Part shown: positions 6,881 through 58,450 of the stretch, piece after piece | How positions within the stretch are numbered: position 1 is the first letter of the stretch | Layout: each line of letters begins with the position of its first letter | Notes under the pieces: model-generated | The model's input: only the letters and a program-made list of their open reading frames with translations | What the model was told of the DNA's origin: nothing | The model's database searches: none | NCBI RefSeq assembly: GCF_039982295.1 | Contig: NZ_JBDWYP010000069.1 | Span: 4,964-68,963 of the forward strand | Length of the DNA: 64,000 bases | Direction: 5' to 3' | Source: Roseibium sp. | GTDB taxonomy: Bacteria; Pseudomonadota; Alphaproteobacteria; Rhizobiales; Stappiaceae | Program-made: the position numbers and the translations under genes

Positions 6881-7462
6881 ATGAAATCTGTTTGCGTCTT
6901 CTGTGGTTCCAGCTACGGATCGAACCCGGTCTATACTCAGGCCGCCAATGAAACCGGTACGCTGATCGCGAAGCAGGGCCTTACTCTGGTCTATGGCGGC
7001 GCAAAAGTCGGGCTTATGGGCACCGTCGCCGATGCGGCACTCGCCGCTGGAGGCCAAGTCATTGGCGTCTTGCCTACCTCGCTGCAGGAAAAAGAGCTCG
7101 CTCACGATGGGCTGTCCGAACTCCACATCGTAAGTTCTATGCACGAGCGAAAGGCCCTGATGGCGGAGCTGTCCGACGCTTTCCTGACACTGCCCGGTGG
7201 GGCCGGAACCATGGAAGAACTGTTTGAAGTCTGGACGTGGGGCCAGCTCGGGCTGCACAATAAGCCATGCGGTTTTCTCAACACCCAGGGCTTTTATGAC
7301 AAGCTTCTCAGTTTCCTGGACTTTCAGTCTCAAGAAGGCTTCATGAAACCTGTGATGCGCGACATGGTCCAGGCGGCCGACAATCCGGCTGATCTCCTCA
7401 AGATGTTTCGGGCCTATCAGCCGCCCGCCACACCAAAGTGGATTAAAACCGACGAAACCTGA
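6881..7462 (+). CDS. LOG family nucleotide 5'-monophosphate phosphoribohydrolase (TIGR00730-like)
   Basis: VCVFCGSS, LVYGG, MHERKA, PGGAGTMEE motifs. Confidence 0.92.
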   Translation: MKSVCVFCGSSYGSNPVYTQAANETGTLIAKQGLTLVYGGAKVGLMGTVADAALAAGGQVIGVLPTSLQEKELAHDGLSELHIVSSMHERKALMAELSDAFLTLPGGAGTMEELFEVWTWGQLGLHNKPCGFLNTQGFYDKLLSFLDFQSQEGFMKPVMRDMVQAADNPADLLKMFRAYQPPATPKWIKTDET

Positions 7463-7609
7463 CGTCTCCTTTTCCACCACCGAGGTGTCACACAATCCAT
7501 CTGTCGACAATCTTAAAACCCGTCTTTGCATGATGCATGGCCGGGTGTTAAGAGCTGGCTTCGCTGGAATAGTTCCTCCAGTCAGTTCCTTTCCGGAGTT
7601 TCCTGTTTC

Positions 7610-8197
7610 ATGCGTTCACCGCTCCTCGGTTTTGCCTGTCTTTTCGGTCTTCTTGCCGCTGCGTGTTCTCCGACCGTCGACTACGACGGCCCCGTCCAGA
7701 TCGCCAGAACATCAAATGTGACGCTGGTGCAGATCAACGACGACACCGTTGGCGGCATCACAGCAGAAACGACCTATGGCGAAAAGTCGATCGCGGCAGC
7801 CCTGCCCGGCTTCACCACCGAGGGCGTTCAGACCGCCGTGGAAGACACCACTGAATGGGCGATCGCAGCATTCAATTCGGACGGTTTTCAGGTTCTTCAG
7901 GTTTTTAAAGGAAAAGGCGGCAAAGTGCGCACCGTCCATGGCGTCACTCACCACCTGCAGGGACCAAATGGCGAGCGGATCGGCATGACCTTCTCCGAGA
8001 TCGGCTCCGCCCGTGCGGACTGCCGCGTCGGACGCAACTTGTGGCGCGGAATGGCGATCTGTAGATCCAAGGGACACGAGAACGTTGAACTCGTCTACGC
8101 GATCCCCGGATACCAAGGACCCTTCGACCAGCTTCCGCCGTCCAAAGAACTTTTCGACGCCCAATTGCAGCGGATTGTCTGGACGCCCCGTACCTGA
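7610..8197 (+). CDS. DUF1131 (YfeY-like) lipoprotein
   Basis: Lipobox LAAAC after a hydrophobic signal; two later Cys (ADCRVG, AICRS); C-terminal LQRIVWTP. Confidence 0.65.
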   Translation: MRSPLLGFACLFGLLAAACSPTVDYDGPVQIARTSNVTLVQINDDTVGGITAETTYGEKSIAAALPGFTTEGVQTAVEDTTEWAIAAFNSDGFQVLQVFKGKGGKVRTVHGVTHHLQGPNGERIGMTFSEIGSARADCRVGRNLWRGMAICRSKGHENVELVYAIPGYQGPFDQLPPSKELFDAQLQRIVWTPRT

Positions 8198-43185: not shown

Positions 43186-44460
43186 CTACTGCGCAGCCGC
43201 CGTTGACTGAAGCTCATCGTCCCGCTCACCGCGATCGGCGAGACGGGCCTTTACCCGGCTCCAACGGGAACGGCTGACGGGAACCTGGTGCGGCTCTTCA
43301 CCCCGCAAGGTCAGCACGCCACTGTCGCCTGCGCGCTTGTAACCATCCACGCGCGTAAGGTTGACGATATGGCTGCGATGAACCCGGCTGAACAGTTTTG
43401 GATCCAGAAGCCGCTCAACTTCACTGATCGCCAGCGGACAGAAGAGCGTTCGCGTTCCATCGAACAACCGGGTGTAGTGAGCATCGGCCTGCACAGAGAC
43501 AACGTCCTGAATACCAACGTGGCATTTCACACCATCACGTTCGACCGGCAGCGTCCTTTTGAAACCGGAGTTCCCTCGTTGACCGGACACGGCCTGCAAA
43601 CCGGCTGGCGGCCGTTTTGCATCAACGTCTACCGGCGTCGCGCGCGCCTCGTCGGAGGTAGCACCCGGCATCTCCGCATCAACATCATTTGCAGCAAGGT
43701 TCTGCGCCGTTTCTTCAAAATCTTCGGCTCTGTTGTGCGACGCGGACACAGCGTCCTGACGTGCAGGCACCAAGGCAAGAAGGAAGAGACCGGAGACCAA
43801 GAAGGCGACACAAGCCACCACAATCGCCAACGTGCCGGGCGAAACCGATGGTGACTTGAAGCCAACAGCCGCATCGTGCGGGGTGAGCGTCATGCCCGCC
43901 ATGGCCGTATAATGCATCGCCGAAATCGCAAGAGCCAGCACGAGAGCAGAAACAACCATCGGTGGCTGCCGACCAACGCCGAAGGAGAGCCAGAGCGCCA
44001 GGCCGGCGGCGTTAAAGGCAACGAGAAAACTCGCGACGATATAGACCGGATCGTGGCTCATGTTCGAAGACGCATGCAGGGCATACATGCCCAGATAATG
44101 CATGATGCAAATGCCCGCTCCCATCACCAGAGCCGACAGGCCGAGACGAATAGCCGTGAGAGAGCCATGACTGGCTGCGAACACGGCTAAACCAACAACA
44201 AGAACACACACCAGAAAGGAAAGCAGTGTCGGCAACACAAGAAAATCGACGGCCACGGGCAGTTGGGCGGCGAGCATGCCGACGAAATGCATCGACCAAA
44301 TCGCCAGGGCCAATGTCAACGCAGCGCCGGCAAGCAGCAAACGTCGGCGCGGATCAACCGCATCTGTCACCTGAACAGAAAGGCTCAAGCCAACAAAACT
44401 TCCTTGAAAAGCCACCACTAGGGACAATGCTACGAGCCAAGGCTCGTGCGAAACGGACAT
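43186..44460 (-). CDS. coxC: CoxC-type MHYT sensor with LytTR DNA-binding domain
   Basis: MHFVGM, MHYLGM, MHYTAM repeats in TM domain; C-terminal ADAHYT...FSRVHRSHIVNL...VPVSRSR. Confidence 0.9.
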   Translation of the reverse strand: MSVSHEPWLVALSLVVAFQGSFVGLSLSVQVTDAVDPRRRLLLAGAALTLALAIWSMHFVGMLAAQLPVAVDFLVLPTLLSFLVCVLVVGLAVFAASHGSLTAIRLGLSALVMGAGICIMHYLGMYALHASSNMSHDPVYIVASFLVAFNAAGLALWLSFGVGRQPPMVVSALVLALAISAMHYTAMAGMTLTPHDAAVGFKSPSVSPGTLAIVVACVAFLVSGLFLLALVPARQDAVSASHNRAEDFEETAQNLAANDVDAEMPGATSDEARATPVDVDAKRPPAGLQAVSGQRGNSGFKRTLPVERDGVKCHVGIQDVVSVQADAHYTRLFDGTRTLFCPLAISEVERLLDPKLFSRVHRSHIVNLTRVDGYKRAGDSGVLTLRGEEPHQVPVSRSRWSRVKARLADRGERDDELQSTAAAQ

Positions 44461-47895: not shown

Positions 47896-47935
47896 TTTAA
47901 CAGCGCGTAAAACAGGTTGGTTAATCTCTTGTAAA
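47896..47935. promoter_or_regulatory. Two tandem CtrA-like boxes
   Basis: Minus strand TTTA-CAAGAGA-TTAAC (47935-47920) and TTTA-CGCGCTG-TTAAA (47911-47896) versus TTAA-N7-TTAAC. Confidence 0.45.
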
Positions 47936-48050
47936 TTTTCAAAATCAAATACCACCTAAAAATGGCGTACCGCTTTTGCCCCCTTCGTCCTTGTTCACTT
48001 CCACCATGGTATTACTCTCTTCTGCTCAAGTGCAATCAAGGAAGCTTCAG

Positions 48051-48521
48051 ATGAGCCTCAACAGTGTCCGCGACCACCTTGCCGAGGCTGCGCCGGAGCT
48101 TCGCGTTCTCGAGACAGACGCCAGCAGCGCCACGGTTGAGCTCGCGGCTGCAGCCCATGGTGTTGAGCCGGCGCAGATCGCAAAGACACTGTCCTTTCGG
48201 TTGAAGGACGAGGTTTTTCTCGTCGTTACGCGCGGCGATGCGCGACTGGACAACAAGAAGGCCAAGGCCGCATTTGGCGGTAAGGTCAAAATGCTTGGCC
48301 GTGAAGAGGTCGAGGAGATAACGGGTCACCCTGTCGGCGGTGTCTGCCCCTTTGGTCTCGCCAATTCTTTGAAAGTCTACCTGGACGAGAGCCTCAGGGC
48401 CTTTGACGAGGTCATACCGGCGGCAGGTGCAACCAATGCAGCTGTCCGCGTCTCCCCCCTCCGCATGGCGGAGATTACGTCAGGTGCCTGGGTCGATGTT
48501 TGTCAGGACCCTGCCAACTGA
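48051..48521 (+). CDS. YbaK/EbsC aminoacyl-tRNA deacylase family
   Basis: QIAKTL, TGHPVGGVCPFG, VYLDESL, PAAG. Confidence 0.9.
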   Translation: MSLNSVRDHLAEAAPELRVLETDASSATVELAAAAHGVEPAQIAKTLSFRLKDEVFLVVTRGDARLDNKKAKAAFGGKVKMLGREEVEEITGHPVGGVCPFGLANSLKVYLDESLRAFDEVIPAAGATNAAVRVSPLRMAEITSGAWVDVCQDPAN

Positions 48522-48643
48522 GAACTGCCGGCGTGCCAGCAAATCATATGTCAGCAGATGCGGCGATTGGGCGCTTTTGAACTCGTTGCAGGAAAACTTG
48601 AGCCTGCTAGGATAGTTTTCATCAACAAACGACGAGGCCTCAA

Positions 48644-50029
48644 ATGCTTGGCATGTCCCGCCGGGAGTTTCTCCTTGGCAGCGCAGGAACCCTGTCGGCG
48701 TTCGCCGGCGGCAGTCTGATTGCGAACCAGGCGAACGCTGCGGATCTCACGCTCCCGATCAAAACGCTGAGCCACAGCCTTCTGCCCGATACCGTCACGG
48801 ACAACATGATGGGTTTCGGGACAGACGGGCCGCCACCTGTGCTTCGGCTCAAACAAGGCGAAGCTTTCACCATCGATGTCGTCAATGAGCTGGATGATGC
48901 GTCCATCGTGCATTGGCACGGCCTGCGCATCGACAACCGCATGGATGGTGTCCCCTATCTGACCCAACAACCGATTGAGCCAGGCGAGCAGTTTCGCTAC
49001 ACGCTCAAAGCACCGGACGCGGGTACTTTCTGGTACCATCCCCATTGCAACACGCTGGAACAAATGGCCAGGGGCCTGACCGGCGTCATGGTTGTCGAAG
49101 AGGCAGAAGATCCCGGCTTCGACCAGGATCTGCCGCTGAACATTCGTGACTTTCGCCTGGCGGGTGACGGACAATTTACGAGCTTCTTCAAGCCGCGCAA
49201 TGCCGCAAGAGGCGGTACGCTCGGCACCGTGTCGACAGTAAACTGGCAGAGCGAACCGATCTATGACATGCCTGCCGGCAGCCTCACACGACTGCGGCTC
49301 GCCGTCACTGACCTCACGCGGGTTGGCACTTATGATCTCAGCAAGGCTGAGGCGGTCGTCATCGCACTTGATTCCAATCCGCTTTCGAACCCGATTGCAC
49401 CGGAAGGCATCGTGCTGTCGCCAGGTCAAAGGGCGGACATCGCCCTGCGTGTTCCCGAGACCGAGGGCGAGATCGTCACCTTGACACGGCGCTCAGCCAA
49501 GGGCCCGAAGGTCATCGCCCATTTTCGCGCAATTGGAACCAGCTCGGGCAGAAGCCTTTCAGAACTCCGCCCCCTCGCGCCCAACCCCGTGCCAGAAGCA
49601 GATCTCGCGAATGCAGAAGTGCTTGACTTCGTTTTCGGCTGGTCACCGGAAGGTACTGCACCCCAACCCGGCATTTGTGGCAGCCTCGGATACACATTCT
49701 GGTCGATCAACCGTGTCGCCTGGGAGGGTGATACGCCAAATCCGATCGAGCCGCTTGCGCTCATGCGGCTTGGAAAGTCCTATATCCTGCGGTTCCGCAA
49801 CGAGACGCCCAACGCCCACCCGATCCACCTGCACGGTCTGTCCTTCAAGCTGCTGCGATCGAACAAGCGGTCCTTGCCGCCGCTGGTGACCGATACAGCT
49901 CTGCTCCTGGCCGAAGAAACCATGGAAGTCTCTCTTGTGGCCGACAACCCAGGCAACTGGGCATTCCATTGCCACGTGATCGAACATCAGAAGACAGGTC
50001 TCACAGGCTACGTCCGCGTTGATGCCTAA
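48644..50029 (+). CDS. Tat-exported three-domain multicopper oxidase
   Basis: SRREFL; HWHG, WYHPH, HPIHLHG, HCHVIEHQKTGL. Confidence 0.93.
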   Translation: MLGMSRREFLLGSAGTLSAFAGGSLIANQANAADLTLPIKTLSHSLLPDTVTDNMMGFGTDGPPPVLRLKQGEAFTIDVVNELDDASIVHWHGLRIDNRMDGVPYLTQQPIEPGEQFRYTLKAPDAGTFWYHPHCNTLEQMARGLTGVMVVEEAEDPGFDQDLPLNIRDFRLAGDGQFTSFFKPRNAARGGTLGTVSTVNWQSEPIYDMPAGSLTRLRLAVTDLTRVGTYDLSKAEAVVIALDSNPLSNPIAPEGIVLSPGQRADIALRVPETEGEIVTLTRRSAKGPKVIAHFRAIGTSSGRSLSELRPLAPNPVPEADLANAEVLDFVFGWSPEGTAPQPGICGSLGYTFWSINRVAWEGDTPNPIEPLALMRLGKSYILRFRNETPNAHPIHLHGLSFKLLRSNKRSLPPLVTDTALLLAEETMEVSLVADNPGNWAFHCHVIEHQKTGLTGYVRVDA

Positions 50030-50155
50030 AAACTCGACGCAGACCCAGGCAATCTAAAAAATGCCAGGCGTTGATACATTTTATTGCGACTGATCCTCTG
50101 GTCTCTCGGCGCAAGGCCATTATAACCTTATGTCAGGATCATCGGGGTTTTGGCC

Positions 50156-50983
50156 ATGATTAGGCAAATATCGACTTTTTTCGCAATCAGTCTGCTATCG
50201 CTTTCGCCGCTCGGAACACACGCGCAGGAATTGACAATCGCGGATGCGCACATTCACTACAGTCACGACGCCTGGGACATTTTCCCGCCTGAGAAGGCTG
50301 TTGAAATTCTCAGGAACGCCAACATCCGAAAGGCTTTTGTTTCAAGCTCCAGCGACGATGGCACTCAGATGCTATACCAGGAAGCGCCTGACCTGATTGT
50401 GCCGGTCCTGCGCCCCTATCGGCGTCGCGGCGAGACCCGCAGCTGGCTGCATGATCCTACTGTCCTCGATCACGTCCGCAGCCGTCTGGAAGTCAATGAA
50501 TACGCCGGCATCGGTGAGTTTCATGCCTACGGCGAGGACATCAACGGCGACGTGATGCAAGGCATCATCGCTCTGGCACGGCAGTATGATCTCTTCCTTC
50601 ACGCCCATTCAGACGCTGAAGCCGTCCACCTGATTTTCAAGCATTTTCCGGGAGCTCGCGTTCTTTGGGCTCACTCGGGGTTTGACAGCCCGGATGAGAT
50701 CCGCGCTGTTCTGGAGCAGTATGACAACCTCTGGGCGGACCTTGCATTCAGATCCGATCACGCGTCAGGCAGTGCGGTAGACGACGACTGGCAAAAACTC
50801 TTTGAAGATTTCCCGGACCGCTTCATGCTTGGAACAGACACCTACACGCCCGAACGCTGGCCCTATATCGCTGCCCACGCCGACTGGAGCCGGGAATGGC
50901 TTGCGACACTGCCATCGGAGCTTGCGGCAAACATCGGCCACCGCAATGCGGAGGCACTCCTGACGGCGTCGAACAGCCAATGA
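50156..50983 (+). CDS. Secreted amidohydrolase-superfamily metalloprotein
   Basis: Sec signal; DAHIHY, GIGEFH, HAH, WAHSG, MLGTD. Confidence 0.82.
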   Translation: MIRQISTFFAISLLSLSPLGTHAQELTIADAHIHYSHDAWDIFPPEKAVEILRNANIRKAFVSSSSDDGTQMLYQEAPDLIVPVLRPYRRRGETRSWLHDPTVLDHVRSRLEVNEYAGIGEFHAYGEDINGDVMQGIIALARQYDLFLHAHSDAEAVHLIFKHFPGARVLWAHSGFDSPDEIRAVLEQYDNLWADLAFRSDHASGSAVDDDWQKLFEDFPDRFMLGTDTYTPERWPYIAAHADWSREWLATLPSELAANIGHRNAEALLTASNSQ

Positions 50984-51390
50984 CAGGAAATATCACCAGC
51001 GCAATCTGCTTTGTCGCGACGACGATTTGCCTTGCAAGCGCACCGGCCCTGGCCGATTGCGGAGATGCGTCGGGTTTTTTGATCAAGGGTGACACCGCTG
51101 TCTTGCACCTCACCCCGCCCCCCGCCGCTCTCAAGGTCGGTGAACCCTTTGCGCTGGCCCTTGAGATCTGCGATGCCCCCACTGGCATGGAGGTTATCAG
51201 GCTGGACGCCCGCATGCCGGCCCACGGACATGGAATGAACTATGTGCCGGAACTCTCTCATATGGACGATGGACGATATCTCGCTGAGGGGATGCTCTTG
51301 CATATGCCCGGGGAATGGGAGTTTGTCGTCGATGTCCGCAGCCCTGATCAAAGCGAGCGACTGACTGCGGCGGTTGACCTGAAGCCATGA
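50980..51390 (+). CDS. Secreted YtkA/FixH-like protein
   Basis: Signal peptide; DARMPAHGHGM and LHMPGEWEF; ATGA overlaps on both sides. Confidence 0.7.
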   Translation: MTGNITSAICFVATTICLASAPALADCGDASGFLIKGDTAVLHLTPPPAALKVGEPFALALEICDAPTGMEVIRLDARMPAHGHGMNYVPELSHMDDGRYLAEGMLLHMPGEWEFVVDVRSPDQSERLTAAVDLKP

Positions 51391-52568
51391 TCTGCCGGGC
51401 AGCACCCATTGCCCTATTGATCTGCATTGCGAGCTTGCCCTTTTTCGAAGGGATAACGGCCCACGCCAATGATCGTTTCACCGCCGAGGAACGATCGATG
51501 ATACGCGCGCATGGCCCCTGGCCACTCAAGCCGTCCCCCGACCCTTCCAATCGCTTTTCCGGCAATCAAACCGCGATTGCATTCGGCAAGGAGCTGTTTG
51601 AGGACCCTCGACTTTCGCGCGACGGAAACCTCTCCTGCGCAAGCTGTCACGTGCCCGAGCTAGGCTTCACCGATGGTCTGAAGAGAAGTACCGGTATAGG
51701 CGAAGTCGATCGGAATGCCCCGGCAATCGCCAATCTGACAAGTTTGCGCTGGTTTGGATGGGATGGGCGGTCCGACACACTTTGGGGCCAAAGCATACAC
51801 CCCATTCTCAACGATCTGGAGATGGCGGCAACGGCCGCTGACATCGCGGCTCAAATGGCTGATCAGGAAGATCTGGCTGCGCGCTATGAGCAGACGACCA
51901 AGATCAACCCAGCTGATGAGCCATCAGAGACCATTCTCGTCAACACCGGCAAGATCCTGGCGGCCTATCAAGAGACCCTGCGCACCCCTCGCACGCGGTT
52001 TGATGACTATCGTGATGCACTCATCTCAGGTGACATAGTCGGTCTTGCGGCCTACCCGGACGCGGCCAAACGCGGCCTGAAGATCTTCACCGGCAAGGGC
52101 AAGTGCAGCATCTGCCATTTCGGGCCGTTGTTCACAAATGGCGAGTTCCACAGCATCGGCATCAAGCACTTTGCGGAAGCTGGCCGGGTCGACACCGGGC
52201 GGTACGGAGGCCTTAAAGCCTTTCGCACCAGCAAATTCAACCGTCTCGGGCCCAATAGCGACGAAGATCAGGCGCGCGCAGCAAAGGCGCCCAGCGCTTA
52301 CGTTGCCTTCCTTCACAGCAATTGGGGCGCCTATCGCGTACCCTCCTTGCGCAATGTTGCCGCGACAGCTCCCTACATGCATGACGGCAGCCTGGCGACG
52401 CTTGAGGATGTTGTCGACCATTACTCCGACATGAACATGGACCGTCTCCACTCGGACGGAGAAACCCTTCTGAGGCCGCTCGATTTGTCGGCGCGAGAAC
52501 GTGCGGACCTCGTTGCGTTTCTGCACACACTGACCGCCGCGCCTGTCGCTCACGCCGCCGGCGATTAG
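51387..52568 (+). CDS. Diheme cytochrome c peroxidase superfamily protein, MauG/MbnH-like
   Basis: CASCH and CSICH; GWDGR; VPSLRNVA.TAPYMHDG...VVDHY. Confidence 0.88.
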   Translation: MICRAAPIALLICIASLPFFEGITAHANDRFTAEERSMIRAHGPWPLKPSPDPSNRFSGNQTAIAFGKELFEDPRLSRDGNLSCASCHVPELGFTDGLKRSTGIGEVDRNAPAIANLTSLRWFGWDGRSDTLWGQSIHPILNDLEMAATAADIAAQMADQEDLAARYEQTTKINPADEPSETILVNTGKILAAYQETLRTPRTRFDDYRDALISGDIVGLAAYPDAAKRGLKIFTGKGKCSICHFGPLFTNGEFHSIGIKHFAEAGRVDTGRYGGLKAFRTSKFNRLGPNSDEDQARAAKAPSAYVAFLHSNWGAYRVPSLRNVAATAPYMHDGSLATLEDVVDHYSDMNMDRLHSDGETLLRPLDLSARERADLVAFLHTLTAAPVAHAAGD

Positions 52569-52747
52569 TCCGCGCTGTCGGTCAACAATCTTGTTCGAGA
52601 AAACGTGAAGAGAAATCCCTGCCGCTGACATTACTTCGGCCCGCAAGAGCTCTATACTTACACCGTGGTGTTTCCATTCGCGCCCCCGCCGCTCTCGGTT
52701 CATTTGGCATCGGGCAAAGCGTCATGTTATTCGAAGGAGAAACAGGC

Positions 52748-53245
52748 ATGAAAGCCCCAGCCTACAACCGTCGTTCCTTTCTGATCGGCGCGGGTCTCTG
52801 CAGCGCCTCCCTCATCCGCCCTCCTTTCAGCCTCGTTTCCGCAGCCAATGCGGCAACCGGTTTGGCTCCGACGGCATCCATGCGCGGTGGCAGCAACAAT
52901 TACCGTCCGAACGCACCGCTGGTCGAAAATCTAGGCAAGGGTTTCTGGGTCTCCGGAACAGTCAGAAATGCCGGCAACGGCGAGCCGCTTTCAGATGTTC
53001 GCATTCAGATCTGGGCAGCAACCGAGCGCGGCGGCGAACGTGAACCGAGCAACCATGGCAGCGTTTTGACGGCCCCCGATGGCACCTTCCGGCTTGAGAT
53101 GTCGCAGATCCTGCCCAATTTCGGCCAGCCCCATGCGCATCTCGCCTATGATGACGGCGCCTTCAAAACCGTTTTTCTGCGCCCGGTGATGGGCAGCAGG
53201 AGCGATACCAGCGTCGAGGCTCATTTCGTCCTTGCATCAACCTGA
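52748..53245 (+). CDS. Tat-exported intradiol-dioxygenase-fold protein
   Basis: NRRSFL; VSGTVR...PLSDVRIQIW, APDGTFRL, PHAH. Confidence 0.75.
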   Translation: MKAPAYNRRSFLIGAGLCSASLIRPPFSLVSAANAATGLAPTASMRGGSNNYRPNAPLVENLGKGFWVSGTVRNAGNGEPLSDVRIQIWAATERGGEREPSNHGSVLTAPDGTFRLEMSQILPNFGQPHAHLAYDDGAFKTVFLRPVMGSRSDTSVEAHFVLAST

Positions 53246-53249
53246 CGCC

Positions 53250-53927
53250 GTGCGCCAACGCATTCTGCCAAACAACAAGCGCTCCCTCATCCGCAGCCTT
53301 GTCGTCGGGCTGATCTGGGCCACAATTGCAGGCCTTGCGCTGTGGCCAATACTGATCGCGGCAACGAGCCCATACCTCGTTGGCCGCAGCGCGATCTACA
53401 TCGCAGCAGGACTTGCCGGCGCTCTGTCTCTGGCGCTTCTCTTCATCCAACCCCTGCTGGCTGCGGGTTTTCTTCCTGGCCTGATGGGTCCACGTGGTCG
53501 CCGGTGGCATCGTGTCGCCGGGTTTCTGATTGCGGCAGCCGTGGCGGTTCACGTTGGCGGGCTTTACATCACCAGTCCACCGGACGCACTTGATGCCCTG
53601 CTTCTGATTTCGCCAACCCCGTTTTCCATTTATGGTGTGGCCGCCATGTGGATCCTCATCCTGACGGTCGCGCTGGTGGCGTTTCGCAAGTACCTCCACA
53701 TTGCTCCATTGACCTGGCGCATCATCCACAACGTGCTGGCCGCGAGCGTGGTGGTGACCAGTGTCGCCCATGCGTTTCTGATCGAGGGCACGATGGGAAC
53801 TGTATCGAAGACCATTCTCTGCGGCTGCGCAGTGCTCACCACAGCTGCCGTGACCCTTTACCTTCGAGTGTTCAAACCACTCCGCATGCACAGAATTTCG
53901 ACCCCGAAATCCCGTAGCGCGCCCTGA
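53250..53927 (+). CDS. Ferric-reductase-like TM domain protein (MsrQ-like, no FAD/NAD domain)
   Basis: About 6 TM; two His pairs 14 residues apart (WHRVAG...VH; IHNVL...AH); GTG start inferred. Confidence 0.75.
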   Translation: MRQRILPNNKRSLIRSLVVGLIWATIAGLALWPILIAATSPYLVGRSAIYIAAGLAGALSLALLFIQPLLAAGFLPGLMGPRGRRWHRVAGFLIAAAVAVHVGGLYITSPPDALDALLLISPTPFSIYGVAAMWILILTVALVAFRKYLHIAPLTWRIIHNVLAASVVVTSVAHAFLIEGTMGTVSKTILCGCAVLTTAAVTLYLRVFKPLRMHRISTPKSRSAP

Positions 53928-54079
53928 CCCTCACTCAAAGTCGCGACCACCTCGATTTGAGGCCTGTCTTTGCAGTGAAAAATCTCAAGCCTGTTTTCTG
54001 GGCAGGCCCAGATCATTCAAACAACGTTTGAAGTTTTCCATCAATCAGTCTAGATCCATGATGGGAATCGGGAGGGGAA

Positions 54080-54709
54080 ATGGACTCGGAAACAACGGCA
54101 CAGCGCATTCTTCGGAACGCAGAACATCTTATGGCATCAAATGGGATTGCGTCGACTTCGGTCCGACAAATTACGGACGCCTCGGAAGCCAATGTCGCTT
54201 CAGTAAACTACTACTTCGGCAGCAAGTCAGAGCTCCTGCTGGAATTGTTGAAAGACCGGTTCTCACAATTAGATGCTGAGCTACTGGCAAGAGTAAATAC
54301 CGTCGAGAAGAATTCTGCGGGAACACGTCCCAAGGTGCGGGATCTGACAGCAGCCTACTTTGACGCTCTTGCCCATCTGGGTTTCAATTCGGAAACCGGG
54401 AAGCTGGATCCTTTCATCCTTCTCATTCAACGGGCCGCTGCTGAACAGGAAGAAGTTCTCGATAAAGCACAGGATTTCAACGCCCCTGGCCTATCAAAAT
54501 TGATGTCTTTATTGGCTGACAGCATTCCAGAGCACCAAGGCCGGGAAATTGAAATCAAAACACTTCTGCGCCTAATGTTTACGACATCGGTTGCCGCAAT
54601 GCCGACGATGGGCGCAGCGCGCAAAAACGACATGCAGTTTTCAGCTGTTCGGGACTTCCTGTTTGCAGGCGTCGAGGCCTACCTGATGCGGATAGAAGAT
54701 AAATCCTGA
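54080..54709 (+). CDS. TetR/AcrR family regulator
   Basis: RILRNAEHLMASNG..STSVRQIT.ASEANVASVNYYFGSK. Confidence 0.9.
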   Translation: MDSETTAQRILRNAEHLMASNGIASTSVRQITDASEANVASVNYYFGSKSELLLELLKDRFSQLDAELLARVNTVEKNSAGTRPKVRDLTAAYFDALAHLGFNSETGKLDPFILLIQRAAAEQEEVLDKAQDFNAPGLSKLMSLLADSIPEHQGREIEIKTLLRLMFTTSVAAMPTMGAARKNDMQFSAVRDFLFAGVEAYLMRIEDKS

Positions 54710-54721
54710 GTTTAATTCTCT
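54707..54721. promoter_or_regulatory. RirA/IRO-like box upstream of the iron ABC operon
   Basis: TGA-GTTTAATTC-TCT, one mismatch to TGA-N9-TCA; near-identical to the box at 60630. Confidence 0.5.
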
Positions 54722-54847
54722 TGTAAAATCAGCCCAATTTTGGCATCACCAGATGACTTCAATGTCAGGCTTTTGCAAAGCCGCAATTCAAAACGAACGC
54801 TCAGCCAAGCAATAGACATAGCCAGGCGTCCAGATATGGAGACGACA

Positions 54848-55756
54848 ATGCGCGCACTTCGTTGGGCTGCAGTTACCTTGGTGTGTGGGCTTGGGAGTCA
54901 AATCGCGCTCGCAGATACCTTGTCGATCGAGACTGCAAGAGGAAATATCGACGTCTCGCGCGATCCCCAAAAGGTGGTTGTCTTCGACATTTCGGCTCTG
55001 GACACACTGAACGCTCTCGGGGTTCCAGTCGCAGGTACACCCGAGCAGGTTTTTGTAGACTACCTGAAGCCAGTGGCTGAAGACGCCGAGAAAGTAGGAT
55101 CGCTCTTCGAACCGGATTTTGAGGCCATAAATGCGCTGCAGCCTGATCTGATTGTTGCAGGCGGCCGATCATCCAAACAAGTCGAAGCTCTTTCGGAATT
55201 CGCACCGACCGTTGACATGACGATTTGGGGCGATGGTCTTTTGACGCAAGCGATTGCGCGCCTTCACGCCTATGGCTCGCTGTTTGGCAAGGAAGACGCT
55301 GCTCAAAAGTTGGAAGATGATCTGAATAGCGCCGTCAATGCGTTGAAAAAGCAGGGTGCCGGTGCCGGAAAAGCTCTCATCGTTCTAACAAACGGGCCAA
55401 AGATCAGTATCTACGGCAAAGGTTCTCGCTTCGGTTGGCTCCATACAGAACTCGGAATTGAGCCAGCGGTCGAAGATGTTGACTCTTCGACCCACGGTGA
55501 GGCGGTTTCCTTCGAGTTCATTCGAGATGCCAACCCGGACTGGCTGATTGTGATTGATCGTGCTGCCGCGATTGGTCAAGACGCGGCGTTGGCCGCCGAA
55601 ACGCTCAACAATAAACTGGTTGCTGAAACCACGGCCTGGAAGTCCGGACAGGTTATCTTTCTTGACGCAAGCAAGGTTTATATCGCAGCAGGTGGCTATC
55701 AATCGTTGATGGGTACCTTGACCGAAATTTCGGCGGCATTCCAGAAAGCCGACTAG
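54848..55756 (+). CDS. Siderophore ABC transporter substrate-binding protein (FatB/FetB/YclQ type)
   Basis: PQKVVVFD, VGSLFEPDFE, GSRFGWLH, HGEAVSFE, NPDWLIVIDR; GGAGA RBS before ATG 54848. Confidence 0.9.
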   Translation: MRALRWAAVTLVCGLGSQIALADTLSIETARGNIDVSRDPQKVVVFDISALDTLNALGVPVAGTPEQVFVDYLKPVAEDAEKVGSLFEPDFEAINALQPDLIVAGGRSSKQVEALSEFAPTVDMTIWGDGLLTQAIARLHAYGSLFGKEDAAQKLEDDLNSAVNALKKQGAGAGKALIVLTNGPKISIYGKGSRFGWLHTELGIEPAVEDVDSSTHGEAVSFEFIRDANPDWLIVIDRAAAIGQDAALAAETLNNKLVAETTAWKSGQVIFLDASKVYIAAGGYQSLMGTLTEISAAFQKAD

Positions 55757-55771
55757 GCGGACACCCATTCC

Positions 55772-56761
55772 TTGCGCCCTCACCCTGCTCCCTTGCACCG
55801 GACATCGGCACTCTGGCCGATCGTCCTGTCGGTTCTCCTTACCGGGCTGATCGTCGGGAGCCTTGTGACCGGAGCAGCGAATGTGTCAGCTCTCGATCTC
55901 TTTCGCCGCGGCGAAAGTGGCGACATCTTGCTTGTCAGCAGATTGCCCAGGACACTGGCGACCATCCTTACTGGCGCGTCTCTCGCCGTTGCCGGCGTCA
56001 TCATGCAAACGCTTGTCCGCAACCGTTTTGTGGAACCGGCAACGACCGGGACCGGCCAATGCGCATCGCTTGGGCTTCTGGCAACGTTGATTCTGGTTCC
56101 TGGCGCTCCCCTCCTCGCCAAGATGGCGATTTCCAGTGCTGCAGCATTTGCGGGAACAGCAATCTTCCTGGTATTGGTGCGCAGACTTCCCCCGACCCAA
56201 CCTCTCCTCGTTCCCCTGACTGGCATCGTCTACGGCGGAATAGTCGGATCTATCTCGATTTTCATAGCCTATGAAAATGACTTGCTTCAAAACATCTCTG
56301 TCTGGATGAATGGCGAGTTTTCCGGGGTTCTCCAAGGCCGCTATGAATTACTATGGGCGTCCGGAGCGGCTGCCCTGGCTGCCTATTTCTATGCAGACCA
56401 ATTCACGGTCGCAGGGTTCGGGAAAGATACCGCGCATGGTCTCGGGCTTAGCTACCGCTCCGTGATGATCGCTGGCCTGGGCATCGTCGCCCTGATTACA
56501 TCCTTTACGATTCTCACGGTTGGCATGCTGCCCTTTGTCGGGCTTGTCGTGCCGAATATCATCAGTCGGTTCCGGGGAGACAATACGAAGGAAACCTTGC
56601 CACTTGTGGCCATTCTAGGGGGCATTCTTGTGCTCGCGAGCGATCTCATTGGCCGCTTGATACGCTATCCCTACGAGATTCCTGCGGGAACGATCTTTGG
56701 CGTCCTCGGCACAGTCGTTTTTCTCTGGCTGTTGTTTGCAAGGCCAACGCGCCGTGGTTAG
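55772..56761 (+). CDS. Iron-chelate ABC permease (FatD type)
   Basis: SRLPRT, MQTLVRNRFVEP, PFVGLVVPN, RYPYEIP. Confidence 0.92.
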   Translation: MRPHPAPLHRTSALWPIVLSVLLTGLIVGSLVTGAANVSALDLFRRGESGDILLVSRLPRTLATILTGASLAVAGVIMQTLVRNRFVEPATTGTGQCASLGLLATLILVPGAPLLAKMAISSAAAFAGTAIFLVLVRRLPPTQPLLVPLTGIVYGGIVGSISIFIAYENDLLQNISVWMNGEFSGVLQGRYELLWASGAAALAAYFYADQFTVAGFGKDTAHGLGLSYRSVMIAGLGIVALITSFTILTVGMLPFVGLVVPNIISRFRGDNTKETLPLVAILGGILVLASDLIGRLIRYPYEIPAGTIFGVLGTVVFLWLLFARPTRRG

Positions 56762-57695
56762 AACCTTCTGTATTCTTGGCTTGTGCACTGTCCTCTCAAT
56801 CACTGCTTTCATGGTCCTTGGCGCCCGCGGAAATTGGGATTTCATCCTGGTTTTCAGAGGCACGAAGCTGCTGGCTCTCGTCATTGTCGCCACAGCGATC
56901 GCGGTTGCCACCATCCTCTTCCAGACGTTAACGAGCAACAGGATCCTTACCCCATCGATCATGGGTTTTGATGCACTCTACGTTCTGTTTCAGACCGCGC
57001 TGATTTTTACCCTTGGCGGCTTTGGATTTTCGTCTCTCGCTCCGGAGTTAAAGTTCGCCCTGGAACTCTGCCTGTTGTCCGCAGCATCCCTCATGCTGTT
57101 CGGAAGCCTGATTGGCCAAGGTATGCATGACCTGTTTCGCATGTTGCTGGTTGGCGTTGTGTTCGGGGTCCTTTTTCAAAGCCTTACGGTGCTCTTGCAG
57201 CGCATGATCGACCCGAATGAGTTTTCGGTGCTTCAGGGATCTTTATTCGCCAGTTTCAACAAAGTGGACACCACTCTTATCGCTCTCGCAACACCGTTGG
57301 TTCTCGCGTGCTGCGCTTTGGCCTGGCACAAGCGCAACGTCTGGGACGTTATGGCTCTGGGGCGTGAACAGGCCATCAGTCTTGGCCTGAACTACAAACG
57401 CGAGCTGTTGATTGGGCTCGCCTTGGTCACAGCGTTGATCGCCACATCAACGGCGCTGGTCGGGCCAGTAGCTTTCTTCGGCCTTTTGGTCAGCGCAATC
57501 AGCTATGAAGTCACGAAAACTCATCATCATGGCCCGATTTTCCTGTCGTCCATCCTGATTTCCATCATCGTTCTCGTCGGCGGTCAGGCCATTTTCGAAC
57601 GCGCACTCGGGTTGGGTGCGACCTTGAGTATTGTCGTCGAATTCCTGGGTGGATTGGTGTTCCTGTTTTTGATCCTGAGGAGGGTTCGAGTTTGA
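56754..57695 (+). CDS. Iron-chelate ABC permease (FatC type)
   Basis: FQTLTSNRILTPSIMGFD, ALVGPVAFFGL; GTG start overlapping the upstream stop. Confidence 0.9.
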   Translation: MVRTFCILGLCTVLSITAFMVLGARGNWDFILVFRGTKLLALVIVATAIAVATILFQTLTSNRILTPSIMGFDALYVLFQTALIFTLGGFGFSSLAPELKFALELCLLSAASLMLFGSLIGQGMHDLFRMLLVGVVFGVLFQSLTVLLQRMIDPNEFSVLQGSLFASFNKVDTTLIALATPLVLACCALAWHKRNVWDVMALGREQAISLGLNYKRELLIGLALVTALIATSTALVGPVAFFGLLVSAISYEVTKTHHHGPIFLSSILISIIVLVGGQAIFERALGLGATLSIVVEFLGGLVFLFLILRRVRV

Positions 57696-58450
57696 TCGGA
57701 ATCGAAAATGTCACCTTCCATCATGGCAAGTCTCCAATCTTGAAGGACGTATCTCTCACAATCAAAAAAGGTGGCATCACCGCTCTGATTGGTCCAAACG
57801 GCGCAGGCAAATCAACACTGTTTGCACTGATGTCGAGGTTGCTCCCCCTTCAGTCTGGCAAGATCTCTTTCGATGCGATGGACATCCGTCAGACAGCTTC
57901 AAGGGAACTTGCGAAAAAGCTGGCGATCTTGCGGCAGGACACCCATGTGGCGTCGAGAATTACCGTGCAGGACATGGTCGGGTTTGGGAGGTTCCCACAT
58001 CATCAGGGTCGTGCGACACGCGTGGACCACGACAAGGTTAGTGCCGCACTGGAGGTGTTCGACCTCACAGCCATTGCAGAGCGCTTCATCGACGAATTGT
58101 CCGGCGGACAGCGCCAACGCGTACTTGTGGCGATGGCCTATGCCCAGGACACGGAATATCTTCTTCTGGACGAACCTCTCAACAATCTGGACATGCATTT
58201 TGCCCGCAATCTGATGCATCAGTTGCGCGATCTTGCTGACAACCACGGCAAGACCGTCGTCGTCGTGCTGCATGAGATCAACTACGCAGCAGCGCATGCA
58301 GACACAATCATCGCCTTGAAAAACGGTAAGGTCGCCTCGCACTCAAAAACCGATGAGTTCATGACCGAGGAAACCCTTTCCAGGATCTATGACATGCGGG
58401 TCAAAGTCAGGACCGTCGACGGTCTGAAAGTGGCATTACACCACGTCTGA
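57692..58450 (+). CDS. Iron-chelate ABC ATPase (FatE type)
   Basis: GPNGAGKS, LSGGQRQR, LLDEPLNNLD. Confidence 0.95.
   Translation: MIGIENVTFHHGKSPILKDVSLTIKKGGITALIGPNGAGKSTLFALMSRLLPLQSGKISFDAMDIRQTASRELAKKLAILRQDTHVASRITVQDMVGFGRFPHHQGRATRVDHDKVSAALEVFDLTAIAERFIDELSGGQRQRVLVAMAYAQDTEYLLLDEPLNNLDMHFARNLMHQLRDLADNHGKTVVVVLHEINYAAAHADTIIALKNGKVASHSKTDEFMTEETLSRIYDMRVKVRTVDGLKVALHHV

Follow-up and report, generated by a model that had tools for sequence, protein, structure and literature searches.

Three pairs of a diheme enzyme and an adjacent copper protein are known, namely MbnH/MbnP, SACCP/MopE, and CorB/CorA, in which the copper site of the partner contains a kynurenine derived from Trp. 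MbnH is the established modifier of MbnP, a periplasmic copper protein with a site formed by His, Met, and the Trp-derived residue made by MbnH, whereas such a role of the diheme protein is suspected for MopE and CorA. According to a 2025 paper, MauG, MbnH, and BthA are the only MauG-type enzymes that have been characterized (PMC11892367). Ligation of a heme by Tyr and His is tied to the formation of bis-Fe(IV) in MbnH (PMC11892367) and in MauG and BthA (PMC6405878); the characterized Tyr/His diheme enzymes form bis-Fe(IV) and spend H2O2 as an oxidant rather than scavenge it (PMC11892367 and PMC6405878). The locus described here lies on the forward strand of a 64,000-nucleotide stretch of Roseibium sp. 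DNA (contig NZ_JBDWYP010000069.1; the whole stretch is hereafter called the window) and encodes an amidohydrolase, a small CrdA/YtkA-like protein that is a putative copper binder, and a diheme c-type enzyme of the CCP_MauG superfamily. These three form a unit that is both conserved and autonomous, with the small protein and the diheme enzyme as its deeper core. In broad terms, they probably constitute a system that matures a copper site or acts on one, with the copper protein or its bound copper oxidized by the diheme enzyme. The explanation we favor, tentatively and at slightly less than an even chance, is that the locus is an uncharacterized, self-contained periplasmic module in which the diheme enzyme may oxidatively mature or tune a copper site in the small protein while the amidohydrolase processes the same protein.

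The genes of the amidohydrolase (50156..50983; 275 amino acids from the ATG at 50156), the small protein (50980..51390; 136 amino acids from an ATG), and the diheme protein (51387..52568; 393 amino acids) are co-oriented and translationally coupled by two 4-nucleotide overlaps. Both overlaps read ATGA in the sequence, with a stop and a start codon interlocked between amidohydrolase and small protein (50980..50983) and between small protein and diheme protein (51387..51390). The N-termini of all three products look like Sec signal peptides (...THA/QE, ...ALA/DC, and ...AHA/ND), and the original prediction of three exported proteins joined by ATGA overlaps agrees with these open reading frames (ORFs), their overlaps, and their N-termini. 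The ORF listing begins the amidohydrolase at an upstream TTG (50150), which gives 277 amino acids, while the ATG gives the length of the orthologue in Roseibium polysiphoniae.

The diheme protein matches Pfam CCP_MauG (PF03150) with 130 bits, and its nearest homologue is from R. polysiphoniae (87% identity). By homology, the motif C84-A-S-C87-H88 (51636..51650) belongs to the peroxide-reactive heme 1 and the motif C240-S-I-C243-H244 (52104..52118) to the six-coordinate heme 2; C84, C87, H88, and the residues of the heme 2 motif are invariant in the alignment of homologues. Tyr346 (codon 52422..52424) lies 14 positions after the His of PYMH, as had been noted. In HMMER alignments this residue stands opposite the Met of “NTM” or “ETM” in the cytochrome c peroxidases (CcPs) of Shewanella and Nitrosomonas and opposite the Tyr of MbnH (PDB 6e1c). 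Its column in a MAFFT alignment is invariant and matches the Tyr of “EHY” in a genuine Methylobacterium MauG, which was taken from a complete mauFBEDA-amicyanin-mauJG cluster on a plasmid (locus L086). This Met and this Tyr are established heme ligands in CcP and MauG-type enzymes (see PMC6405878). The equivalence of the position to the CcP Met ligand and the MauG Tyr was thus borne out, and an alignment check for Met as the distal ligand of heme 2 returned Tyr. In the predicted ligand set, Tyr346 replaces Met as the distal ligand of the six-coordinate heme, which departs from the classical His/Met pattern of CcP.

The conservation around this site points in the same direction. All 28 homologues compared (51–87% identity) keep H345 and Y346, and Tyr occupies the ligand position in 78 of the 85 related loci. 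In the MAFFT alignment, this diheme family and the genuine MauG share four further invariant residues, namely the distal Gln135, Pro139, and Glu145 and, between the hemes, Trp125. Overall identity to that MauG is 37%. With Tyr in place of Met and these four residues as in MauG, the assignment to the MauG/MbnH type rather than to the classical peroxidases is upheld. The G238 of the family, which had been named as the counterpart of Trp199 of MauG, is also invariant, with Ala at the aligned position in the Methylobacterium MauG, a protein unequal in length to the MauG of P. denitrificans.

Within the Tyr-ligated branch, the diheme protein is assigned by sequence to a separate subfamily of the MauG/MbnH type that belongs to neither the MauG nor the MbnH family, because it falls far below the NCBIfam cut-offs for both MauG (TIGR03791, 182.1 against 443.85 bits, with the best-matched stretch at residues 64–268) and MbnH (TIGR04039, 153.5 against 362.85 bits) and because its family has its own invariant N-terminal motif (HGPWP...PDPSNR.SG). 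Among PDB sequences, the diheme protein matches MbnH (6e1c) best, and classical peroxidases and MauG come next. Compared with the system of MauG and pre-methylamine dehydrogenase, the likeness lies in the Tyr at the six-coordinate heme position, the distal Gln/Pro/Glu triad, and the inter-heme Trp predicted from the alignment, whereas that N-terminal motif sets the family apart and mauA, mauB, mauD, mauE, and amicyanin genes are absent from the window. The ORF listing and the Pfam and NCBIfam scans found no mau genes and no mbnP in the window, in agreement with what had been noted about the adjacent genes. BthA of Burkholderia is likewise of the MauG type, with a Tyr/His heme, a stable bis-Fe(IV) state, and an unknown function (PMC6405878). 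However, it is only weakly similar to the diheme protein (44 bits), is larger, and has a C-terminal disulfide, and the portion of PMC6405878 drawn on here mentions no CrdA-like or amidohydrolase partner for it.

The unit recurs far beyond Roseibium. Three of three diverse diheme homologues that were looked up, including those of Candidatus Entotheonella and a Paracoccaceae metagenome-assembled genome (MAG), are encoded after an Amidohydro_2 protein of about 275 amino acids and a protein of about 140 amino acids in the same order, with unrelated flanks. A locus survey by tblastn with the window proteins, limited to one genome per species, covered 80 loci, many of which are MAGs. Most loci with a diheme protein at least about 44% identical to that of the window carry all three genes, and the trio occurs in Alpha-, Beta-, and Gammaproteobacteria, Methylomirabilota, Rokubacteria, and Entotheonella. 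The order of small protein and diheme enzyme is kept in about 26 of the 32 loci with a diheme protein at least 40% identical. The 4-nucleotide overlaps recur at 19 of 31 junctions between small-protein and diheme genes and at 13 of 23 junctions between hydrolase and small-protein genes. This recurrence of overlaps, together with a gene order kept across phyla, confirms gene coupling beyond chance. A search begun from homologues of the amidohydrolase also recovered the trio in three of three loci, one of them with a truncated diheme gene, and the expectation that the trio is conserved as a unit was confirmed. One genome of 4.7 Mb (L091, 6322-7110) has an intact hydrolase gene and an intact small-protein gene, while the diheme match covers residues 31–293 only and no gene is called there; a pseudogene or an assembly error is possible.

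The small protein and the diheme enzyme are also found without the amidohydrolase (L008, L016, and L026), and this pair persists at 33–37% diheme identity in one MAG each of Myxococcota and Phycisphaerales, among others (L037 and L039-L042). Moreover, two natural fusions carry the small domain N-terminal to the diheme enzyme, one from a Bryobacterales MAG (L036, 460 amino acids) and one a database protein (P0429, 495 amino acids), and three carry it C-terminal to the amidohydrolase (L012, from an Afifella MAG; L024, from a Burkholderiaceae MAG; and the protein P0427). Since it is fused to either enzyme, the small protein appears to be the physical center of the module and to contact both enzymes. 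We take the kept gene order, the fusions, and the unrelated flanks as signs of an obligate partnership between small protein and diheme enzyme.

Six diheme genes of the clade lack the upstream partner (L019, L022, L027, L029, L032, and L034), and in these either the motif is changed to PYG[RH]DG or the Tyr region is lost. All 27 diheme proteins that have the partner retain the Tyr, compared with two of the six orphans (Fisher p = 4e-4, in a small, MAG-derived sample), which is suggestive of a Tyr that tracks the presence of the partner. In the orphans L019 and L022 (both genes at ~7000-8100) and L029 (863-1975), PYG[RH]DG replaces PYMHDG and CHSGP replaces CHFGP, and the three share a distinctive C-terminal tail (NPWRP.D...C). 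Two related genomes have a second, paralogous diheme gene after the trio (L001, 9311-10453; L089, 8309-9451), which encodes 380 amino acids with about 29% identity. This paralogue also has Tyr at the ligand position (“PYMHNGVFEDLRTVMLFYN”) and is thus a second MauG-type enzyme, with no obvious partner.

The small protein scores 21.4 bits against Pfam YtkA (PF13115), which is under the cut-off of 25.9, although a precomputed PF13115 match exists for about one third of the homologues listed. No NCBIfam model matched the small protein or the amidohydrolase, and single-sequence searches of the PDB with either protein gave noise only. The family is large and wholly unannotated: a word-indexed search returned 857 clusters, and an exhaustive search of a library of 50%-identity representatives returned 4049 matches at E ≤ 1e-3 and 2070 at E ≤ 1e-10. 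Both motifs named in the earlier reading are present, namely MPAHGHGM (Met79–Met86, 51214..51237), a candidate metal-binding loop, and HMPGEW (His108–Trp113, 51301..51318). In alignments of 30–81 sequences, A77, M79, P80, H82, H84, G85, M109, G111, and W113 are invariant, W113 being the sole Trp of the protein. In the deepest alignment, D76, M86, and H108 are near-invariant, with H108 kept in at least 90% of the sequences. On the other hand, C27 and C64 are conserved in the main clade only and are missing in the deeper clade.

An AlphaFold (AF2) model of the small protein is an eight-stranded beta-sandwich (predicted local distance difference test [pLDDT] 87, and about 95 in the mature domain). 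The top Foldseek match of this model in the PDB is CrdA of H. pylori, in apo and Ag-bound forms (E 7.5e-5, 22% identity), and the next are the copper proteins FetP and CopC. A profile of the family searched against the whole PDB likewise has CrdA as its sole match, with a marginal E of 0.03, and aligns “DArMPaHrHGM” on “FMMPEM-PGM” and “HMpGrW” on “SMNGTW” of CrdA. The small protein is thus supported, by profile and model, as a distant CrdA relative with a CrdA/CopC/FetP-like fold. The Met-rich segment of CrdA is its proposed Cu(I) site and has the MxxMPGM motif in common with CopC and PcoC, and YtkA/CtaK, after which the Pfam family is named, has conserved His and Met and supports CuA assembly. 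Because of the CrdA matches in profile and fold, the aligned Met-rich motif, and the role of YtkA/CtaK, periplasmic copper binding is the best-supported reading of the small protein, and the link to copper that had been suggested from its Met- and His-rich motifs gained support.

CrdA is therefore the closest relative of the small protein by both profile and fold, with M-P-x-x-x-G-M and M-x-G-x-W as the aligned elements. CrdA lacks His, whereas the small protein has two invariant His in its Met-rich loop, where His partly replaces the Met of the CrdA segment. CrdA is found with RND (resistance-nodulation-division) efflux and CtaK with cytochrome oxidase assembly, whereas the small-protein family is tied to a diheme enzyme. 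With MbnH/MbnP of Methylosinus trichosporium (6e1c and 7L6G), the module shares a partner gene directly in front of the diheme gene, and no PDB sequence matches the diheme protein better than MbnH, whose Tyr aligns to Tyr346. Unlike MbnP, the 136-amino-acid small protein has a CrdA-like fold and lacks a TIGR04052 match and the WxW motif; moreover, no TonB-dependent transporter or mbn genes accompany the module, and MbnPH has no amidohydrolase. The SACCP/MopE and CorB/CorA systems of methanotrophs also place a CcP-like diheme gene beside that of a secreted copper protein, and their copper site of two His and a kynurenine can be compared with the two invariant His and one invariant Trp of the small protein, although the partner folds are unrelated.

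The amidohydrolase matches Pfam Amidohydro_2 (PF04909) with 40.3 bits, over the cut-off of 26.4, has more than 6000 relatives at E ≤ 1e-5, and surpasses the other two proteins in conservation (55–95% identity among the homologues listed). Its AF2 model is a TIM barrel (pLDDT 90), and D32, H34, H36, H39, D40, E123, H125, H151, H153, D155, H175, D197, and D230 are invariant in 59 homologues. The ligand pattern of the superfamily is present as H34-x-H36, E123, H151/H153, H175, and D230, with the strands assigned by inspection of the secondary structure, and we read these residues as a complete binuclear metal-ligand set of the TatD type. The Foldseek neighbors include the uncharacterized Clostridium amidohydrolase CAC3332, TatD nucleases, and LigI/LigJ, as well as the amidohydrolase-fold dimetal oxygenases SfbO, TruffO, and AibH1H2. 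With such neighbors, a hydrolytic function is likely but not certain. The protein had been called Trp-rich; several of its Trp residues are invariant (W99, W173, W214, W237, and W250), and the term stands for 8 Trp in 277 amino acids (2.9%).

If the small protein is the substrate, these parts can be arranged into a mechanism. Copper would most likely be bound by the small protein through Met79, His82, His84, and Met109 (with His108), beside Trp113. The diheme enzyme would dock on this protein, encoded just upstream, and its heme 1 would react with H2O2, while the His/Tyr-ligated heme 2 would allow two oxidizing equivalents to be stored as bis-Fe(IV) and spent on the partner rather than on scavenging of peroxide. 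Oxidation would then occur at a residue in or next to the metal site (Trp113 is the leading candidate) and would thereby create or tune the copper site. The amidohydrolase, which joined the pair in one large clade, may act on the same small protein, for example by hydrolyzing an oxidation intermediate. Oxidative maturation of a copper site is favored because the module follows the same logic as the known pairs, with the partner gene first, the diheme gene second, translational coupling, and two His, two Met, and one Trp that are invariant.

Several observations weigh against this explanation. CrdA, for which no diheme enzyme is a partner, has the counterpart of Trp113 as well; this Trp is inherited from the CrdA-like fold and may be a structural residue or a Cu(I)-pi cap, and its invariance alone is no sign of modification. 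A permanent subunit, a stable complex, or a carrier domain would account for the fusions to both enzymes no less well than a transient substrate would. None of MbnP, MopE, and CorA ranks among the 50 best fold matches for the small protein, and the analogy with these proteins is for this reason one of logic and not of ancestry. The hydrolase label is less than certain because dimetal oxygenases share the fold. When 101 ORFs that flank the trio at 20 loci were classified with Pfam, no family recurred at more than three of the loci, and neither copper genes nor regulators nor transporters stood out as a theme. A multicopper oxidase gene adjoins the trio in the window and in R. polysiphoniae but is absent from the other trio loci. 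Finally, three RNA-seq runs with the same organism label contained zero reads from the region.

Two of the competing explanations, a peroxide-driven oxidation of Cu(I) and a carrier cycle, are kept alive by the fusions and by the Trp shared with CrdA. In the first, which is unlikely, though less so than the other rivals, the small protein would capture Cu(I) as CrdA, CopC, and CusF do, and the diheme enzyme would use H2O2 to convert it to Cu(II), such that both Fenton reactants are removed and no residue is modified. The CrdA-type homology and the Met/His site of the small protein suit this role, a metal-binding domain fused to the diheme enzyme would be a fitting substrate-presenting domain, and the CueO/CopA-like multicopper oxidase directly upstream in the window and in R. 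polysiphoniae is in keeping with it, although its absence from the other trio loci is not. Moreover, an easy one-electron oxidation needs no invariant Tyr-ligated heme, which in characterized enzymes is the mark of bis-Fe(IV) protein chemistry, and the amidohydrolase is left without a role.

A more specific version of oxidative maturation gives the amidohydrolase a defined step, but it is rather improbable. The module would be a three-step pathway by which a new fold acquires a copper site of the kynurenine type: Trp113 would be turned into N-formylkynurenine by the diheme enzyme, and the amidohydrolase would be the N-formylkynurenine deformylase. We know of no dedicated enzyme for the deformylation of N-formylkynurenine in proteins. 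In a broader form, the small domain would be a carrier that shuttles between oxidant and hydrolase, and, if this were true, its fusion to either enzyme would be explained.

The roles of the two partners could also be exchanged, with the amidohydrolase as the protein that is matured. The diheme enzyme would then equip it with a Trp-derived or other oxidized cofactor, in the way that methylamine dehydrogenase receives its cofactor from MauG, and the small protein would be a metallochaperone or docking adaptor. This idea, which we consider distinctly improbable, draws on the five invariant Trp residues of the amidohydrolase, on its being the most conserved of the three proteins, and on the three cases in which it is fused to the small protein. 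However, the pair of small protein and diheme enzyme occurs without the amidohydrolase in the eight loci given above and as a fusion in L036, and the metal-ligand set of the amidohydrolase is itself complete, so that an extra cofactor is not obviously needed. Of the two substrates that had been proposed, the amidohydrolase is accordingly unlikely to be the primary one, as the pair is found without it in several lineages.

In the carrier cycle, the diheme enzyme would oxidatively attach or transform a small substrate on a swinging beta-sandwich, and the binuclear hydrolase would release the product, which formally resembles the logic of SoxYZ, SoxAX, and SoxB. The small domain is fused to one enzyme or the other depending on the lineage, and the gene order of hydrolase, carrier, and oxidant is fixed. 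Nonetheless, we regard this cycle as highly improbable, given that the invariant His, Met, and Trp residues are of the metal-site type, the two Cys are missing in the deeper clade, and no conserved transporter or substrate-related genes are found near the 20 trio loci. Least credible of all is an ordinary periplasmic CcP beside unrelated genes, for although public records name the diheme protein “cytochrome c peroxidase” and its P-heme pocket is intact, an invariant Tyr takes the place of the Met ligand, the gene order is kept across phyla, and fusions exist.

Full-text searches of the open-access literature found no paper on the combination of small protein, diheme enzyme, and amidohydrolase, in line with the original prediction that the pairing is not recognized from any characterized pathway. 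The databases name the proteins “cytochrome c peroxidase,” “amidohydrolase,” and “hypothetical/YtkA-like.” What is new is a module of a MauG-type enzyme with a dedicated partner, which is a known kind of system and not a categorically new one. Its diheme enzymes would make up a widespread fourth MauG-type subfamily beside those of MauG, MbnH, and BthA. Synteny and natural fusions identify a likely protein partner, which makes the question of the substrate directly testable, and the module brings MauG-type chemistry together with periplasmic copper proteins of the CrdA/YtkA class and with an amidohydrolase. If oxidative maturation of the small protein is correct, the biogenesis of protein-derived copper sites would extend past methanotrophs to marine Alphaproteobacteria, soil Betaproteobacteria, Rokubacteria, and Entotheonella.

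The genome of R. polysiphoniae is syntenic with the window throughout. The multicopper oxidase (48644-50029, forward strand) is CueO/CopA-like, with a Tat (twin-arginine translocation) signal and Cu-oxidase_3 and Cu-oxidase_2 domains, and its gene ends 120 bp before the trio. The possibility that the trio belongs to a larger copper operon kept across genomes was rejected, as the flank census shows no recurrent copper genes. Directly downstream of the diheme gene are genes for a 173-amino-acid protein with a Tat-like signal and a weak CarboxypepD_reg match (52724-53245, forward) and, after a 14-nucleotide overlap, for a 231-amino-acid ferric-reductase-like membrane protein of the YedZ/FRD type (53232-53927, forward). 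This gene pair is common to R. polysiphoniae only, and it could be a membrane electron supply for a periplasmic partner. About 6 kb upstream of the module, on the reverse strand, a 424-amino-acid protein (43186-44460) appears to combine an N-terminal MHYT-type membrane sensor with a LytTR DNA-binding domain, and its R. polysiphoniae orthologue matches Pfam MHYT and LytTR. Farther downstream (54080-58450, forward), a TetR-family regulator is followed by an ATP-binding cassette (ABC) importer of the siderophore type, with Peripla_BP_2, two FecCD permeases, and an ATPase, which was assigned by homology with the syntenic R. polysiphoniae locus, where a TonB-dependent receptor gene comes after the importer.

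A scan of the region for promoters and terminators gave scores no better than shuffled sequence. In four sequencing runs labelled “organism A” (X1-X4), 100% of the words sampled from 47900-54100 are present; these runs contain the region as contigs only, without local depth or strand information. Other runs under that label include oligo-dT RNA-seq and very large PacBio genome data, which suggests that the sample came from a eukaryotic host and that the bacterium was its associate or a contaminant.

The genes upstream of more distant Tyr-type diheme genes vary and include those for a PhsA-like multicopper oxidase, YceI, and a SorB-like cytochrome, as well as, at one distant locus of the surveyed set, an MbnP-family gene. 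In two Acidobacteriaceae MAGs (L044, 5311-6870; L052, 5288-6880), the PhsA-like multicopper oxidase, which matches the O-aminophenol oxidase model with an E of 1e-90, is encoded immediately upstream of a diheme protein 34–35% identical to that of the window, and this is a separate recurrent pairing of a diheme protein with a copper enzyme.

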